Shown: positions 41,685 to 49,548, numbered from the stretch's first letter. The stretch: DNA of 64,000 nucleotides from an uncultured Candidatus Saccharibacteria bacterium (GCA_964355655.1 CAYHDT010000001.1:21588-85587); one strand, 5' to 3'. Numbers and translations are program-made. Notes: generated by a model from the letters alone, not told the origin.

Positions 41685-42605
41685 ATGGCGGAGCTTAAAA
41701 ACCTCAAGACCCAGTTTTTGGAATATTTAGAGATAGAGAAGGGGCGCTCTGTTAAGACGGTCGAAAATTATGACCGCTATCTGACGCGCTACCTTGCTCA
41801 CTCCAAGGTTACCTCCCCCCAGAAAATCACCGAGCAGTCGGTGCGCGAGTTCCGCATACATTTAAACCGGCAAGCCGGTACGAGCGGGACGATGAAGCAC
41901 AAAACGCAGAACTATTACATGATTTCACTCCGCGCGTTTCTTAAGTTCCTCCGCAAGCGCGATATAGAAAGCTTAAACCCCGAACGCATCGAGCTGGCCA
42001 AGGTCGGCCAGCGCGACCTCGACCTTATAACCTCCGATGAGCTTAACCGCCTTATCAACGGGCCCAAAGGCGACCCATCTTTGGCGGGCCTGCGCGACCG
42101 CGCCATACTGGAGCTTTTTTTTAGCACCGGTCTGCGCGTCTCGGAGCTATGCGCTCTTAACCGCGACATCGACCTGACACGCGACGAGTTTAGCGTGCGC
42201 GGCAAGGGCGAGAAAGTCCGCGTCGTTTTCCTATCCCCCGCGGCCAAGCAAGCTATTAAGGACTACGAGCAGAAGCGCGGCGACGTGGATGAGGCGCTGT
42301 TTATACAGATGGGCCCCTCCTCCGCCAAGGCTTCGGAGGGCGGGCGCGACTTGCGCTTAACGCCTCGGTCAATTGAGCGGATTGTAAAAGGCTACGCAAT
42401 CAAAGCCGGCATCACGCGCAAAGTAACCCCGCACGTCATAAGACATTCTTTCGCGACTGATTTATTGGAAAACGGCGCCGACCTGCGCGCAGTCCAGGCA
42501 CTCTTAGGCCACGCCAACATAGCAACCACACAGGTTTACACCCACATAACCGACAAGCACCTGCGCGAAGTCCACAAAAAGTTCCACGGCCAGCGGAGGA
42601 AATAA
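41685..42605 (+). CDS. Tyrosine recombinase XerC/XerD family.
   Basis: Catalytic residues R..HxxR..Y (HVIRHSFAT...LLGHANIATTQVYTHI). Confidence 0.85.
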   Translation: MAELKNLKTQFLEYLEIEKGRSVKTVENYDRYLTRYLAHSKVTSPQKITEQSVREFRIHLNRQAGTSGTMKHKTQNYYMISLRAFLKFLRKRDIESLNPERIELAKVGQRDLDLITSDELNRLINGPKGDPSLAGLRDRAILELFFSTGLRVSELCALNRDIDLTRDEFSVRGKGEKVRVVFLSPAAKQAIKDYEQKRGDVDEALFIQMGPSSAKASEGGRDLRLTPRSIERIVKGYAIKAGITRKVTPHVIRHSFATDLLENGADLRAVQALLGHANIATTQVYTHITDKHLREVHKKFHGQRRK

Positions 42606-43856: not shown

Positions 43857-44144
43857 ATGAAACATGCATTTAATGCTCAGTTGCAGGTGCAATTTCTCAA
43901 GCAGGGAAAGTACACTGTTGCCTACTCACCTGCCCTAGATATTTCAACTTCCGGTAAAAACCAAACGCAGGCGCGCAAGCGTTTTGCCGAGCTCGCGAAC
44001 ATCTTTATACGCGAAATAATGGAGAGGGGTACGGCACACCAGATACTCACAGAGCTGGGCTGGACTCATCGTGCCCATGCCGGTTGGGCGCCACCTAAAA
44101 TGACTAAAAGCCCCGTGTCTGTACGCATCCCTGTCGCCGCGTAA
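43857..44144 (+). CDS. HicB-like antitoxin.
   Basis: 95 aa, YTVAYSPALDISTSGKNQTQARKRFAE matches the HicB N-terminal fold pattern. Immediately upstream of hicA. Confidence 0.55.
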   Translation: MKHAFNAQLQVQFLKQGKYTVAYSPALDISTSGKNQTQARKRFAELANIFIREIMERGTAHQILTELGWTHRAHAGWAPPKMTKSPVSVRIPVAA

Positions 44145-44150
44145 TCTTTC

Positions 44151-44378
44151 ATGGCCCGTATTGGGACTATTCATTGGAAGAAGTTCGAAAAGTTTCTTCT
44201 TGCCGTGGGTTGCTCTTTTGAACGCGAGGAAGGAGACCATCGCATTTATTGGAAAGAAGGATTAAAAAGACCGATAGTGGTGCCCCGCGACACCCTCCCG
44301 CCTTTTATTGTGTTGAACAATCTGCGAACTTTGGGCGTATCGCGTGACGAGTATTTAAAAATCATCGGCAGAAAATGA
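44151..44378 (+). CDS. hicA: HicA-family mRNA interferase toxin.
   Basis: 75 aa, GDHRIY...PIVVP...IVLNNLRTLGVSRDEY motifs. Confidence 0.7.
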   Translation: MARIGTIHWKKFEKFLLAVGCSFEREEGDHRIYWKEGLKRPIVVPRDTLPPFIVLNNLRTLGVSRDEYLKIIGRK

Positions 44379-45066: not shown

Positions 45067-45840
45067 ATGTCAAAAATTATTGATGAAATAGGAAACAAAG
45101 CTTTGTCAGATAAGCTCCAAGAACTCGGTTTGAGCGAAAAGGAGGCTGCTGTGTACTTGGCCCTTTTGCCTCGGCAAGATACGGGTACGAGTGTACTAAT
45201 TAAGACGACGGGTCTACATGGGCAGTTTGTATATGATGCTTTGGCTAAACTGGAGGTCCTAGGTCTTGCCAAACATGTAGTCCAGGCAGGCCGGAAGAAG
45301 TTTTCGGCCAACCCACCCCAGCGCTTACTCTCGCTAATAGAAGAAAAGCGCCTTTCGGCGCAGTCGGTGGCCAAAGAGCTCCAAGCTCGCTTTGCGGGTA
45401 AGCACGAACAGAGCTTCGAAGTCCATCAGGGAGACTCGGCTTTTATTGCACATCAAATGGATCTACTGCGTCGGGCACCGCAGGGCGGCACGTTGGACGC
45501 CATTGCAACCGAGACAGAGCGGTTTCAAAAAACGTTTGAAGAGTATGGCATGTGGGACGAATACTTGCGATTGCAGGTGGAAAAGGAGATAAAGATCCGT
45601 TACTTAGGATCGGAGGCACAGCGGGGCCGTCTGCAAAAGCGTGAGCAAAGCGAACTATCCTGGACCTATAAAATCCTGCCGGGGCAGTCGACCGGCAACA
45701 TCAGTATCGAAGTGCATGCCGAGACGGTCACCTTTGTTACCTACGGCGAGCCGGTACTCTGTTTTACTCTCTCCAGCAAAGAAGTTGCACGAGGCTACCG
45801 TGAGTTTTTCAATTCTGTTTGGGCGTTGGCTAAGAAATAA
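45067..45840 (+). CDS. TrmB-family transcriptional regulator (paralog 2).
   Basis: N-terminal LGLSEKEAAVYLALL wHTH. Confidence 0.7.
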   Translation: MSKIIDEIGNKALSDKLQELGLSEKEAAVYLALLPRQDTGTSVLIKTTGLHGQFVYDALAKLEVLGLAKHVVQAGRKKFSANPPQRLLSLIEEKRLSAQSVAKELQARFAGKHEQSFEVHQGDSAFIAHQMDLLRRAPQGGTLDAIATETERFQKTFEEYGMWDEYLRLQVEKEIKIRYLGSEAQRGRLQKREQSELSWTYKILPGQSTGNISIEVHAETVTFVTYGEPVLCFTLSSKEVARGYREFFNSVWALAKK

Positions 45841-45857: not shown

Positions 45858-46160
45858 CTAATGCAGGTTCTCCGGAGATTTTTTGTAGCTCCGTATTTTG
45901 TTAAGGAGTTCTTTTGCCGCAGCCAGATTTTTTGCATCAAAAAGCGCTAGCTCATGGGAATGCGCGCTATCTTCAAAATAGTCGCTAAAATGGGTCGAGA
46001 GTCCGTCTTCATTCCACTGTTTCATCAGAGCATTGCCGGCAAGGTCCGGGTATGCTGCTTGGGCGAGCGCAATCTGCGCTCTATTTCTTATGAGCATCAT
46101 GTCCGGAGGCGGAGGCTGCCCCTGCGACTGTTCCTGCTGTACCCTCTCCATACCTGTCAT
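45858..46160 (-). CDS. Hypothetical protein.
   Basis: 100 aa. Confidence 0.4.
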   Translation of the reverse strand: MTGMERVQQEQSQGQPPPPDMMLIRNRAQIALAQAAYPDLAGNALMKQWNEDGLSTHFSDYFEDSAHSHELALFDAKNLAAAKELLNKIRSYKKSPENLH

Positions 46161-46374
46161 ATCCTAAGCATATCAAATTCCTGTGTTGCGCAAACTCGAT
46201 AAGCCAACCAGTAATGACAAGCTTAATAGAGTCCTCGAATTTACGCGTCGAGGAGCCGCGCCCTTTGCGGGAGTACTTCTTTTTGTCGCAGACCACGCGG
46301 TTTTTGTACCGAGGGTCGGCGAGCACGCGTGCCGCATCACTGCGGCGCTTCGGGGCTTGGATGGTGATTTGCAT
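46081..46374 (-). CDS. Small basic protein (MQITIQAPKRRSDAARVLADPRYKNRVVCDKKKYSRKGRG...). Weak resemblance to ArfA-type ribosome rescue factors.
   Basis: Strong RBS AGAGGAAAG 6 nt before the ATG at 46374. Overlaps a neighbouring ORF by 38 nt. Confidence 0.3.
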   Translation of the reverse strand: MQITIQAPKRRSDAARVLADPRYKNRVVCDKKKYSRKGRGSSTRKFEDSIKLVITGWLIEFAQHRNLICLGYDRYGEGTAGTVAGAASASGHDAHKK

Positions 46375-46795
46375 AATTTCTTTCCTCTGCATCGGCACAC
46401 CACGATTGATGTGTCGAAAAAAGGAGGCGACACTGGGTCGCCTCGACGAATCCTGCATGGCGGAACACCTGGGTCTTTTTGACGGACCCGTCGGGGAGTT
46501 TTTCGTCCCGCGACTCCCGAACCGAGAAGGCGTAGAGAACTTTTATTCCCCGCTCTTGCAACGCCGCCTGCAACACCGGCATAAAGAACGGGGCACCGCC
46601 GATCATTACCGAATCAAAGCCATCCTGGCGGGCCATCTGCGCGAGTGTTTGTGCATAAGCCTTGAGCCGGATTTGATCAGGCAGCTCATCGAACGTAATG
46701 AGTGCCTGTACGAGCACCTTGTCGGCAGGCTCGACGACGCCGGCAGCAATTTGGTCAGCAGTCGCTGCGTGCTGGGTCAAATTTAAAATTCGCAT
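46337..46795 (-). CDS. Hypothetical protein.
   Basis: 152 aa, no motif recognised. Confidence 0.5.
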   Translation of the reverse strand: MRILNLTQHAATADQIAAGVVEPADKVLVQALITFDELPDQIRLKAYAQTLAQMARQDGFDSVMIGGAPFFMPVLQAALQERGIKVLYAFSVRESRDEKLPDGSVKKTQVFRHAGFVEATQCRLLFSTHQSWCADAEERNYANHHPSPEAPQ

Positions 46796-46799
46796 GAAA

Positions 46800-48130
46800 G
46801 AACCCCTTGTTTCTCAATAAGCCAACGAACCATTCGCGGGCTGAGTAAAGAGGGCGAGCACGAAGGCTCGCCCGGAAGTTTGAACAATCACTGAAAGAAC
46901 AAAATTAATGGGTGGTAGCGCTAGGTCTTCGCCACCATGATGCTGTCACTCCCCGAAGCTTGTGGAGAGTCGGACCGCAGCTGTTGGGCTGCCAGCACCT
47001 TTGATCACACATCCCGATGTCGCCACCGGGTTAGAGGAATGTGTCTCCCTCTTATCCGGACTGAGCTTATTGGCTCCAGGGCTGGCCGGCCCCTTTACCA
47101 TGCGGTTGGTTGACCGCTCCCCCTTTGCACCACCAGCTTCCCAGACCGATGGATTGGGGTATGATCCGACGCTCATGTCCTTACCTCAGGTTTAACCATT
47201 CAACAGGATCTGTGCTGATCATGTGATTCTGGTTGGTACTGAGGAGGTCCCCACCACAGGCTTGCGGCCCATAGCAGTTTCCACCAACTTTCTGCCCGTA
47301 TACCGTTGGCGACGGCACACAAACTTCTGACTCCCTTTGCCCCGCCAAGGGCTCGGACCGTTGCATAGTGCAAGCCTTGCGACTCGACACCCGGGAGAAA
47401 ACCCTTTTCATCGGGCTCCGTTTAGCTTCGGTGGAGATTTGGATGCTTGCGCACCCGGCCGTAGCGGAATCAACACTACAACCTATCAACCCCTTGCGGG
47501 GGTATCTGGCTCTCCACAGCCATAACATTGGCGCCGAATGTTCGGCGGCACTGTTATGGCAATGGAGCATTTTCAAACAACTTCTCAATCAACCCACGAT
47601 CCGCCAGTAGGCAGGCTCACGAGCTGAGTAGAGGTGCGGATATAAAGGCTCCGCACTAGTGCCCTCTCACTTTGAGCGACGCCACTCGGGGCGGCGGCCG
47701 GTGGGGGTGGTAATAAGGCGCCGCTCGAAAGCGGCCTGTCCCCTATCAACACCGCACCGCTTGGGCCGTCCGTCCGCCCGGAATCCCTTTTGATGGAGGA
47801 ATTTCGTCGCGGCGTCCTCCAGGGTGTGAGACCCTGCATTCGTCCGGCTATTCATCATTTGTAACCCCCCTGGTTGTGTGATGATTGAAAGATCTAATTC
47901 TCTTTTGTTTGAAAAAGAATTGCAGGAGTGTGGGCTGCCCTGGCAACCCTTTGGAGCCCAGCTGGGGTCCGCGGCTACTCCAAGCCACACCTAGCCACGC
48001 GGCCGCGCGCTAGGATTACGATGAGGTCCTCTTTTTATGGAACCCCTCCTCCCAAGTCCTTGCGGTCTCGGGCCCCTCTCAGCCATCGTTCGTGGCTGCT
48101 TGGTACGCTTTTCTAGAGCGCCCAAGGGAG
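46800..48130. ncRNA. Long ORF-free, GC-rich region with many hairpins. Candidate structured non-coding RNA(s) or a degraded element. Its class could not be identified.
   Basis: No protein-like ORF on either strand. The tracked ORFs in this region have RNA-like R/S/P/G composition. GNRA-type hairpins are present (CCCCUUGCGGGG at 47490-47506, GCCGCUCGAAAGCGGC at 47735-47752). Confidence 0.35.
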
Positions 48131-48309
48131 GTAATGGAATCAATACGATCCCAGCCGCCCTGCCCAAATACAAACCGGCGCCCCATATGTATTGCAGGGC
48201 GGGCTGAGTAGCCTGTGGCGTATCTAGAGCAAGGCGAAGGAATCACATTCTTCGCACTTTTTCAGTATTAAACTGTCAAAGTTCGTCCCCGGGACCCCTC
48301 GCCTCCGGG

Positions 48310-48327
48310 TGTCAAACTTGATTGACA
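48310..48327. promoter_or_regulatory. TGTCAAACTTGATTGACA inverted repeat, an operator-like site.
   Basis: Perfect TGTCAA/TTGACA arms. One of three such sites in 48270-48380. Confidence 0.45.
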
Positions 48328-48354
48328 AAGCCATTATAGTCAGTTCTTTAAATT

Positions 48355-48372
48355 TGTCAAGCGGTTTTGACA
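48355..48372. promoter_or_regulatory. TGTCAAGCGGTTTTGACA inverted repeat, an operator-like site.
   Basis: TGTCA-N8-TGACA. Confidence 0.45.
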
Positions 48373-48757
48373 GATTGAAAACTTACATACAGAAAATAGC
48401 CTTAAATATAGCCATTTTTTACATATTGATATTCAATCGAGTATGACATAAAAATAGTGTTGATAGCCAGCTGCTTGACTTTATGTGCTGACTATAGTAA
48501 CCTAATTAGCGACCGGGGTGGTACTCATCCTGGCCCGGGTTTTCTGCCCAGCCCGCAGTCAATTGGGCTTGTACCTCGGCCGGCAAAGTGCCGGTTAGAC
48601 TCAGGAGCTACTTATGAAGAAGCTCAAACTGTTCGGTGACGGCTGGTAAGCCTTTAGTCGGACAATGTGGAATCGATCTCAGCGTCTGAAGTTTCGTCGC
48701 TGTAGGTTGATATCTCGAAAAGCAGAAGCGCACCGCAGTCAAAAGGTGCAAGACGTC

Positions 48758-48806
48758 GGGCGGTTGCAAGGTTCAAACCTCTGCAACCGCCCTACTTGTT
48801 TTTATG
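48758..48806. terminator. Rho-independent terminator, shared with the convergent TrmB gene.
   Basis: GGGCGGUUGCA...UGCAACCGCCC hairpin followed by UUGUUUUUA on the plus strand. The stop of the minus-strand TrmB gene abuts it. Confidence 0.6.
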
Positions 48807-49548
48807 CCTCAGCTATTTCCCAAAGCGTATTAAATATGGCTCTAAAGCTGTCTGCGATTTCTTTGCTGTCTATGATGATGCCGAATACCGGTCCTTTGAG
48901 TGCCATAACGGCGACGCAGTTTCTATAAACAAAAATGTCGGAACTCATGGGCATGCGGTCGGGTGATATATATCTGCGCTCGGTGTTTGGCGGTATCTCG
49001 GAACCCGACTTGCCTCCCTGGCGTGTATAGATGTAGCGCGAGTGGATTCCGTTCCTAACTCTTTTATCAGAAAAATCGTCCAGTTCCTTTTGTGTGTATA
49101 TGGTTGCCAAGGAGTCCCGAGAGAACAAAATAAATATTTCCTCCCCTTTTTTTAAGGTTAAAACCTCTTCGCGCATAGCGGTAATTCCTTCTTTGCCGCT
49201 AAAGAACCTCACCAGCGGTCGCTCGCCGGCGCCTTCGAACTTTTTGAGCAGCTCAGGCAGAAAGTCGTTGAGTTCAAGCTCCTTGGCCTCGAACTCTTTT
49301 TTCTTTAGTTCAAAAATACGCTTCAGATATTCAGGAGATTCTGGGGCAAAGTATGTTTTCTTACCCTCTTCGTAGGTGCTCATGAGACCCTTCTTCATCA
49401 AGCTTTCCAGTTGCACATAGGCGGTTGAGCGCACTATTTTTGCTTGCTTAGCTAGCTGGTCGGCCGTGGCGCGCCCTATTTCCAGAGCGGCAATGTAAAT
49501 TTTGGCCTCTTTTTCCGACAGCCCAACATCCTGGAGCTCTTTTAGCAT
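48802..49548 (-). CDS. TrmB-family transcriptional regulator (paralog 3).
   Basis: Start reassigned to MLKELQDVGLSEKEAKIYIAALEIG (ATG at 49548). The palindrome GTACATTGTAC lies at 49552-49562. Confidence 0.7.
   Translation of the reverse strand: MLKELQDVGLSEKEAKIYIAALEIGRATADQLAKQAKIVRSTAYVQLESLMKKGLMSTYEEGKKTYFAPESPEYLKRIFELKKKEFEAKELELNDFLPELLKKFEGAGERPLVRFFSGKEGITAMREEVLTLKKGEEIFILFSRDSLATIYTQKELDDFSDKRVRNGIHSRYIYTRQGGKSGSEIPPNTERRYISPDRMPMSSDIFVYRNCVAVMALKGPVFGIIIDSKEIADSFRAIFNTLWEIAEA

Follow-up and report, generated by a model that had tools for sequence, protein, structure and literature searches.

A candidate micropeptide gene convergent with a TrmBL2-like regulator gene in Patescibacteria

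What is the product of a short transcription unit that ends in a strong terminator and is followed by no gene on its own strand? This question was raised by positions 48270-48806 of a 64,000-nt stretch of DNA from an uncultured Candidatus Saccharibacteria bacterium (GCA_964355655.1, CAYHDT010000001.1:21588-85587; the whole stretch is called the window). It occupies the right-hand end of a gap, about 2 kb long and gene-free (46796-48801). The original prediction described it as an operator array, a structured leader, a tiny open reading frame (ORF) and a terminator, and read it as a regulated small RNA (sRNA), a micropeptide unit or a leader-peptide attenuator. The self-contained sRNA or micropeptide unit was supported, with a reading frame conserved in 14 lineages; the attenuator was not. 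We lean slightly toward an autonomous micro-gene in a divergent regulatory hub, the product of which would be a short peptide acting within a TrmB-linked switch. Patescibacteria, also called CPR (candidate phyla radiation), are uncultivated, ultrasmall, and abundant in groundwater. To our knowledge, almost nothing is known of their gene regulation.

Homologous loci were retrieved with the two flanking proteins as anchors. The 14 lineages were the window, L191, L200-207 (Adlerbacteria), L208/209, L210/211, L212/213, L199 (Kaiserbacteria), L192, L193, L006, L012/13, L003, L007, and L214-219. L191 was 96% identical to the window at the nucleotide level (96-97%), and the TrmB orthologs of the 14 lineages were 51-100% identical to the window protein. 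Homologs of the locus genes were of Patescibacteria/Paceibacteria type, close to Adler- and Kaiserbacteria, and Hainich groundwater assemblies contained identical copies of the locus genes.

The unit contained a micro-ORF for the predicted peptide, MKKLKLFGDGW, although its ATG was at 48614 instead of 48624 and it had 11 codons instead of 10. The unit and the gene facing it, with untranslated regions (UTRs) and the Shine-Dalgarno sequence (SD), were laid out as follows.

48475-48503, plus strand: promoter of the micro-ORF, with -35 TTGACT (48475-48480), a 17-nt spacer and -10 TAACCT (48498-48503)
48509-48613, plus strand: structured 5'UTR of about 105 nt, with hairpins at 48513-48533, 48537-48569 (small, CGGG/CCCG) and 48575-48598
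48603-48608, plus strand: SD AGGAGC upstream of the micro-ORF ATG
48614-48649, plus strand: micro-ORF from ATG to TAA, 11 sense codons and the stop codon, with homologous ORFs in the 14 lineages
48630-48664, plus strand: stop-codon hairpin, with apical stem GGCU/AGCC (48641-48644/48649-48652)
48665-48757, plus strand: variable 3'UTR, with hairpins at 48669-48714 and 48730-48749
48758-48803, plus strand: intrinsic terminator, with a 15-bp GC-rich stem (48758-48792, -28.5 kcal/mol) and a U tract to 48803
48802-49548 (start alternatively 49647), minus strand: TrmBL2-like regulator of 248 aa (Pfam TrmB), convergent with the micro-gene

A short ORF of 8-22 codons ending in G-D-G-(G)n-x-stop was present in all 14 lineages. 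The peptides are given below, with start codons other than ATG in parentheses.

Window and L191: MKKLKLFGDGW
L200: MCRLGDGW
L208: MRRSPGDGGGW
L210: MRLQANPGDGGGW
L212: (GTG)SPKHRRLNGDGHGGGW
L199: MSSTLFHREIVKLSTPGGGW
L214: (GTG)FLRKRVAALTEGGDGGGGW
L192: MLKLLGDGQ
L006: MRRLLKGDGC
L193: (GTG)RRLKMGTRLVRHAKQMLGDGC
L012: (TTG)TYLNRGGDGN
L003: (GTG)ILTRGDGGGA
L007: MSRKVGDGE

Twelve lineages had G-D-G; in these, no change occurred at the first two positions of the motif's codons, and the variation was synonymous and confined to third positions (GGT/C/A/G, GAC/T, and GGC/T/A). Indels within the ORF were in frame and added whole codons (GGC GGC; CAC GGC GGC GGC). An SD lay 4-10 nt before the start codon (ATG, GTG or TTG) in 13 of the 14 lineages, and that of the window was the AGGAGC of the original prediction. 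A regular expression for an SD, a start codon and no more than 25 codons ending in G[DG]G.. was run over 2.87 Mb of scanned sequence. It matched the micro-ORF site in 13 lineages and one unrelated place. The synonymous-only variation, the whole-codon indels, the SD and the specificity of the search together gave strong evolutionary evidence that the micro-ORF is translated and did not arise by chance, and comparison of the lineages showed protein-level purifying selection on the C-terminal G-D-G-(G)n-W motif. Seven differences between the window and L191 fell in the UTRs and none in the ORF (counted by eye), a count not significant alone. The peptide was basic, Gly-rich, and free of hydrophobic stretches. 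The micro-gene appears to be a well-supported new micropeptide family overlooked by gene callers. A type I toxin-antitoxin system was considered and rejected, as there was no hydrophobic stretch and no promoter-like site faced the micro-ORF on the minus strand.

The unit was convergent with a TrmB ortholog in all 14 lineages. In L007 it adjoined the TrmB ortholog while the MJ1673 gene, which flanks the gap in the window, lay elsewhere, indicating that the micro-gene is linked with the regulator. The regulator comprised a winged helix-turn-helix (wHTH), a long helix and a PLD-like C-terminal domain, and 334 orthologs were found at E < 1e-30. Its AlphaFold model (pLDDT 88) gave a full-length match to TrmBL2 at E = 1e-13. 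The modeled C-terminal domain matched PLD-like folds, and the fold search returned no TPR match.

The same gene order bears on the attenuator, in which a ribosome translating the short ORF would control a structural gene downstream. The unit does resemble trpL-type leaders in that its short ORF repeats Gly codons and precedes a terminator. However, as had been predicted for the window, no same-strand gene lay downstream of the micro-ORF, and this held in every relative; the next gene was convergent throughout and shared the terminator. The spacing between ORF and terminator was highly variable, and neither a 2:3 alternative pairing nor an antiterminator was seen in minimum-free-energy folds or by inspection, no dedicated search for alternative structures having been run. 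Because no lineage had a downstream gene on the same strand, we regard a classical attenuator as having next to no probability.

The TTGACT of the original prediction proved to be the -35 element. Its partner TATAGT (48493-48498) was not the -10, because the two are only 12 nt apart. The promoter was conserved in all 14 lineages as TTGACW-17 nt-TAnnnT, with TTGAC of the -35 invariant and a TGn extension in most. Transcription would start near 48509 and yield an independent RNA of about 295 nt, running from its own promoter to its own terminator. The predicted strong terminator was found in the window, where it was separated from the stop codon by 108 nt and not by the 120 nt first given, and in every relative the unit was followed by an equivalent hairpin. 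The terminator abuts the regulator gene's stop codon (48802-48804), so the micro-gene and the convergent regulator share it.

An independent transcript of this kind might act as a trans-acting base-pairing sRNA, possibly with a dual function in which the ORF is secondary. In its favor, the region 48500-48806 folded better than shuffled sequences on the plus strand (z = -5.3; minus strand, z = -2.3), in line with the structured transcript originally proposed, and a 5'-terminal hairpin was present in every lineage. This hairpin was formed from unrelated sequence, and the leader before the short ORF ranged from 58 to 121 nt. The inner leader carried CGGG/CCCG-type hairpins, and its structure was weakly supported: covariation analysis of the 5'UTR (MAFFT and RNAalifold) gave a single 5-bp helix without compensatory changes. 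Conservation in relatives, proposed at the outset as a check, was seen for the micro-ORF, the stop-codon hairpin and the terminator, and covariation of the inner leader was not demonstrated. Accessibility calculations showed no sequestration of the SD that was consistent across lineages. An H-type pseudoknot derived by hand (CGGGU/GCCC/RCCYG/GGGC) was consistent in 11 lineages; we do not claim it, because in a generic pseudoknot search the sequences did not outscore shuffles.

Against a base-pairing sRNA, the conserved transcribed sequence consisted of the end of the ORF and the terminator only. Neither the sequence nor the length of the 3'UTR was conserved; it measured between 9 nt (L214) and about 190 nt (L193) and did not align. 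Variation at third positions only is a protein signature and not an RNA one. In the window, no extended complementarity or convincing direct repeats connected the RNA of the micro-ORF with the leader of the leftward transcript described below. No Rfam family matched 48270-48806 at the gathering threshold; at E <= 10, the gap gave only chance-level microRNA and CRISPR-DR matches on the terminator hairpin, and at E <= 1 nothing was found in the RNA of nine relatives that is homologous to the micro-gene transcript. ARAGORN found no tRNA or tmRNA in the flagged region. With the 3'UTR unconserved and nearly absent in L214, a base-pairing sRNA is quite improbable. Stop-codon read-through into an in-frame 87-aa ORF (48665-48928, plus strand), which crosses the terminator and runs antisense to trmB, was also rejected. 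That ORF is most likely an accident of frame, because the corresponding frame in L200 stops after 29 codons (read by eye).

Upstream of the unit lay the predicted operators and a second, divergent promoter.

46337-46795, minus strand: MJ1673/Csx20-like ORF of 152 aa, flanking the gap on the left
48274-48281, no strand: lone half-site TGTCAAAG inside the 5' leader of the leftward transcript, conserved as AAACTGTCAAAGTTCG in L200, L208, L210 and L212
48310-48327, no strand: operator O1, perfect palindrome TGTCAAACTTGATTGACA, at about +1 to +20 of the leftward transcript, conserved
48333-48360, minus strand: leftward promoter TTGACA-16 nt-TATAAT, 12 of 12 consensus positions (sigma-70)
48355-48372, no strand: operator O2, perfect palindrome TGTCAAGCGGTTTTGACA, the left half of which is the -35 of the leftward promoter
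48394-48416, no strand: conserved block AAAATAGCCTTAAATATAGCCAT, halfway from one promoter to the other, an imperfect GCCTTA/TAAGGC palindrome
48433-48449, no strand: degenerate operator O3 TCAATCGAGTATGACAT, about 25-45 nt upstream of the -35 of the micro-ORF

The operator array was real, although the three palindromes first described were two perfect sites (O1 and O2) and a half-site. Its proposed role as upstream control of the micro-ORF is uncertain: the array sits on and around the leftward promoter, about 100-200 nt upstream of the micro-ORF promoter, and only the weaker O3 is close. O2 covers the leftward -35 and O1 the leftward start site. Because both overlap the minus-strand promoter, the operators are chiefly part of the divergent leftward unit, a cassette operon driven toward 46337. 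O1 could be an operator or, in the RNA, a 5' hairpin, and the block at 48394-48416 may be a site for a second DNA-binding protein. The perfect 18-bp TGTCAA-N6-TTGACA sites in the 64-kb window were O1 and O2 only (4 strand-hits against 0.7 expected; 1 of 100 shuffles reached 4). The hexamers and spacing of the leftward promoter were repeated in L200, L208, L210, L212, L214, L007, L082, and L167. The O2 pattern TTGTCAANNNNTTNTGACA occurred in L003, L006 and L012/13, and the palindrome also in L082 and L167. At the position of O3, the relatives had ATCAR-N7-8-ATGACAAAA.

A metagenome scan by operator pattern returned 120 loci, nearly all of them chance matches. The control region was common only to L082, L147, L151, L155, L143, and L167, none of which was a close RNA homolog. 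The palindrome and the divergent promoter pair were kept in L167 and L082, where the TrmB-like proteins were only 31-40% identical. L167 (reverse strand of 1590-2300) had the same layout, with mini-ORFs of only 5-6 codons (MGDSD-stop and MGDMGD-stop). L082 (5930-6760) had a 66-aa ORF plus MGLD-stop, and L010 and L067 had MGG-stop behind GGAGGAGG in GC-rich RNA. These are at most possible homologs of the window unit. In L200, a second copy of the control region, with operator TTTGTCAAGCGTTTTTGACG, the leftward promoter and an ATGACA box, lay at about 2240-2500 between trmB and a divergent Ro60/TROVE-vWA gene, indicating that the control region is modular and able to drive other cargo. Autoregulation was considered and set aside, since a copy upstream of trmB was seen in L200 only.

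The clearest RNA feature of the unit was the stop-codon hairpin, in which the last codons pair with the bases right after the stop. The window loop, GGUA, joins the 3' part of the Trp codon to the opening two bases of TAA. Of 13 lineages, 11 had the stop codon inside the loop or beside it (Fisher, combined p = 3.6e-6, shuffled downstream flanks). Four examples are given as stem-loop-stem.

Window: GGCU-GGUA-AGCC
L212: GCGGC-UGGUA-GCCGC
L007: GACGGC-GAGUGA-GCCGUC
L214: GGCGGCUGG-UAG-CCAGCCGCC, the stop codon being the triloop of a 9-bp stem

This hairpin introduces the main rival to a peptide product, namely that the function lies in the act of translation. The nascent G-D-G-(G)n-W, the hairpin, or both would slow termination; the input could be a metabolite or the supply of Gly-, Asp- or Trp-tRNA; and ribosome occupancy would set the stability or folding of the RNA, or read-through of the terminator antisense to the regulator gene. 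Besides the position of the stop codon, several observations favor it. Only the last few codons were conserved, the N-terminus and the ORF length varying freely; the 5-6-codon versions in L167 retained M-G-D; read-through would run antisense to the regulator, since the terminator abuts its stop codon; and stop-codon arrest peptides exist, such as PepNL (PMC11890864) and TnaC (PMC8450073). On the other side, the terminators were strong, the residue beside the stop codon was not conserved, and reading the sequences revealed no antiterminator pairing. With no gene downstream on the same strand and a distance from stop to terminator of 9 to about 190 nt, such a device has no obvious output. We consider it possible but doubtful.

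A short peptide as the product remains the reading that we prefer by a little. In this mechanism, a dimer of the TrmBL2-like protein would bind the TGTCAA-N6-TTGACA palindromes and repress the leftward operon, and would also modulate the micro-gene through the weaker O3. The product of the unit would be the short peptide itself, made in high amounts, and not the leader of a downstream gene or a base-pairing RNA. The peptide might feed back on the switch, for instance by acting on the regulator as co-factor or antagonist, and the stop-codon hairpin might tune termination or stabilize the tiny mRNA. Several points weigh against a peptide product. The evidence for translation is limited to sequence evolution. 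At 8-22 aa, the peptide is very short; its N-terminus evolves fast, and its last residue varies (W, C, Q, N, A, E). The conserved stop-codon hairpin hints at a regulatory event at termination, and the L167 mini-ORFs appear to suit translation sensing better than the making of a stable peptide. Because 100-200 nt separate the palindromes from the micro-ORF promoter, its regulation by them is uncertain. Taken further, the locus might form a control module, so far undescribed, of Paceibacteria-type Patescibacteria. It would consist of a TrmBL2-like repressor, a highly expressed G-D-G-(G)n-W micro-gene and the divergent promoter of a hypervariable array, its small-protein and structured-RNA cassettes set apart by a covarying RNA hairpin; in this module the peptide, or translation ending in the stop-codon hairpin, is the signal or sensor. 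This wider proposal, taken as a whole, is tentative.

The cassettes began behind a leader. About 200 nt at the start of the leftward transcript (48135-48330, minus strand), including the GCGAAGGAAUCACAUUCUUCGC hairpin and a long hairpin around CCCCAUAUGUAUUGCAGGGCGGGC, were conserved in L200, L208, L210, and L212 and look like a conserved leader RNA. Beyond this leader, the cassettes differed between close relatives. L191 lacked a 515-nt stretch (46783-47298) and also differed from the window in 47892-48135, indicating that cassette content varies between near-identical strains in an integron-like manner. No integrase was adjacent to the array; a XerC/D-type recombinase gene lay at 41685-42605. 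Unrelated small proteins occupied the cassette position in L192, L193, and L199.

A junction element recurred among the cassettes. It consisted of a GC hairpin, a hairpin of about 18 bp (CUUUAUUCAGCYCGCGAA-UGG-UUCGYGGGUUGAUAGAG), and then an SD and an ATG. The window contained three copies, each preceding small ORFs of the leftward operon.

46797-46880, minus strand: junction element
47582-47650, minus strand: junction element
48150-48230, minus strand: junction element

The element was also found in L003, L004, L005, L006, L012, L017, L019, L192-L199, L208, and L212. Across 26 copies, the 13 base pairs of the hairpin were 95.6% paired, and 6 showed compensatory double changes (0 of 500 shuffles). 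The many G-U pairs among them suggest a structure at the RNA level, on the sense strand. The element had no Rfam family match; possible roles are a processing or RNase III site and a cassette boundary. The segments between the copies, 46880-47582 (z = -4.9) and 47650-48150 (z = -3.4) on the minus strand, were GC-rich, contained many hairpins with GNRA (GCAA) tetraloops and lacked an SD. No protein homologs of these segments were found in relatives, and the segments may be structured non-coding RNA cassettes rather than genes. Positions 47914-48152 were shared with L003. A weak match to the Rfam Transposase-2 RNA at 48048-48113 (minus strand; 22.4 bits against a gathering threshold of 42.7, E = 0.13), outside the micro-gene unit, is probably due to chance.

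Further observations concern the far side of the gap. A small basic ORF (MQITIQAPKRRSDAARVLADPRYKNRVV..., 46204-46377, minus strand), with 57% identity to a gene called in L193 (58 aa), runs into the 3' end of the 152-aa MJ1673-like ORF. The conserved part of the latter is only about 120 aa, and its annotated end is probably too long. At the other end of the cassette operon, a second TrmB-family gene (45067-45840, plus strand), about 24% identical to the first, was convergent with the last ORF of the operon (45858-46160). Just past the cassette region, a gene at 43857-44378 (plus strand) carried a HicA toxin Pfam domain (44151-44378). The 95-aa ORF before it had no Pfam match and may be a HicB partner, giving a toxin-antitoxin pair.

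Three linked results emerge: a micro-gene of 8-22 codons with a coding signature, the promoter architecture TTGACW-17-(TGn)TAnnnT, and an operator motif beside a TrmBL2-like regulator. No database or literature entry described the micro-gene, the operator or the cassette hairpin, and literature on CPR small ORFs, CPR integrons and TrmB in CPR yielded nothing on the micro-gene locus. If the peptide or its translation gates the cassette operon, this would be the first regulatory switch of such a kind described in CPR. A peptide- or translation-gated switch for an integron-like array would also offer a handle on how these ultrasmall symbionts control accessory genes. If the unit makes only a small protein, it would still provide a new micropeptide family and usable promoter and terminator parts for Patescibacteria genetics.

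SgrS/SgrT, RNAIII/delta-hemolysin, and SR1/SR1P are small-ORF transcripts or dual-function sRNAs. Like them, the unit would be a small free-standing transcript, bounded by a promoter and a terminator of its own and carrying a structured leader and a micro-ORF predicted to be translated. It differs from them in its host, a member of the Patescibacteria, and in its much shorter peptide (8-22 aa); it has no sequence or Rfam relation to them, and no conserved base-pairing region was found in it. In Sinorhizobium, the attenuator RNA rnTrpL and its 14-aa leader peptide peTrpL both act in trans (PMC7298713, PMC7968998). There too, a tiny ORF is carried on a terminated short RNA, and peptide and RNA may each have functions. 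Unlike trpL, which lies upstream of trpE(G) and has Trp codons and alternative hairpins, the unit had no downstream gene and no antiterminator was found.

The G-D-G-W tetrapeptide is shared with streptide precursors, which have a KGDGW core (PMC5491770), so that a precursor of a ribosomally made and post-translationally modified peptide, either streptide-like with a Lys-Trp crosslink or microcin-C-like, also had to be weighed. Very small precursor genes that precede a hairpin are known: mccA, the microcin C precursor gene, has 7 codons and a ribosome-controlled terminator (PMC4231749). Like mccA, which yields an abundant short transcript, the micro-gene is extremely small (its translation being predicted here) and precedes a hairpin and terminator. 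However, neither kind of precursor was matched closely. For streptide, no SPASM radical-SAM cyclase, protease or ABC exporter was found among the called genes and Pfam matches within 2.5-5 kb of any locus. Lys directly preceded GDG in 1 of 13 peptide variants (L006), and Trp was present in 7 of the 13. There was no leader peptide, and 8 aa is too short for the leader needed by the Lys-Trp cyclase (PMC5491770). For microcin C, which is a heptapeptide with a C-terminal Asn accompanied by MccB, the peptides were 8-22 aa long, no ThiF/MccB-like protein, mccB-E-like genes or dedicated transporter were among the called neighbors, Asn was C-terminal once only (L012), and the organisms are unrelated. 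The chance that the peptide is such a precursor is very small.

Gram-positive pairs such as SHP/Rgg, ComS/ComR, and PapR/PlcR also place a tiny peptide gene beside a transcription factor and its target operon (PMC7564271, PMC12445099). As in these pairs, the C-terminus was the conserved part of the peptide, here across 14 lineages. Unlike SHP, ComS and PapR, the peptide lacks hydrophobic character and leaves no room for an export or processing segment, and in place of the HTH and TPR of RRNPP/Rgg proteins, the regulator is predicted to be TrmBL2-like (wHTH and PLD-like). RRNPP-type signaling was rejected on the modeled TrmBL2-like fold, which had no TPR match. TnaC and PepNL (PMC8450073, PMC11890864) share with the micro-gene a short ORF with a conserved C-terminal end beside the stop codon. 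They differ from it in having a regulated downstream gene, there is no sequence similarity, and arrest in the micro-gene is hypothetical. The stop-codon hairpin is a feature of the micro-gene that is not noted for TnaC or PepNL. A small-ORF transcript beside a regulator is thus of a known kind, whereas the micro-gene family and its stop-codon hairpin are new.

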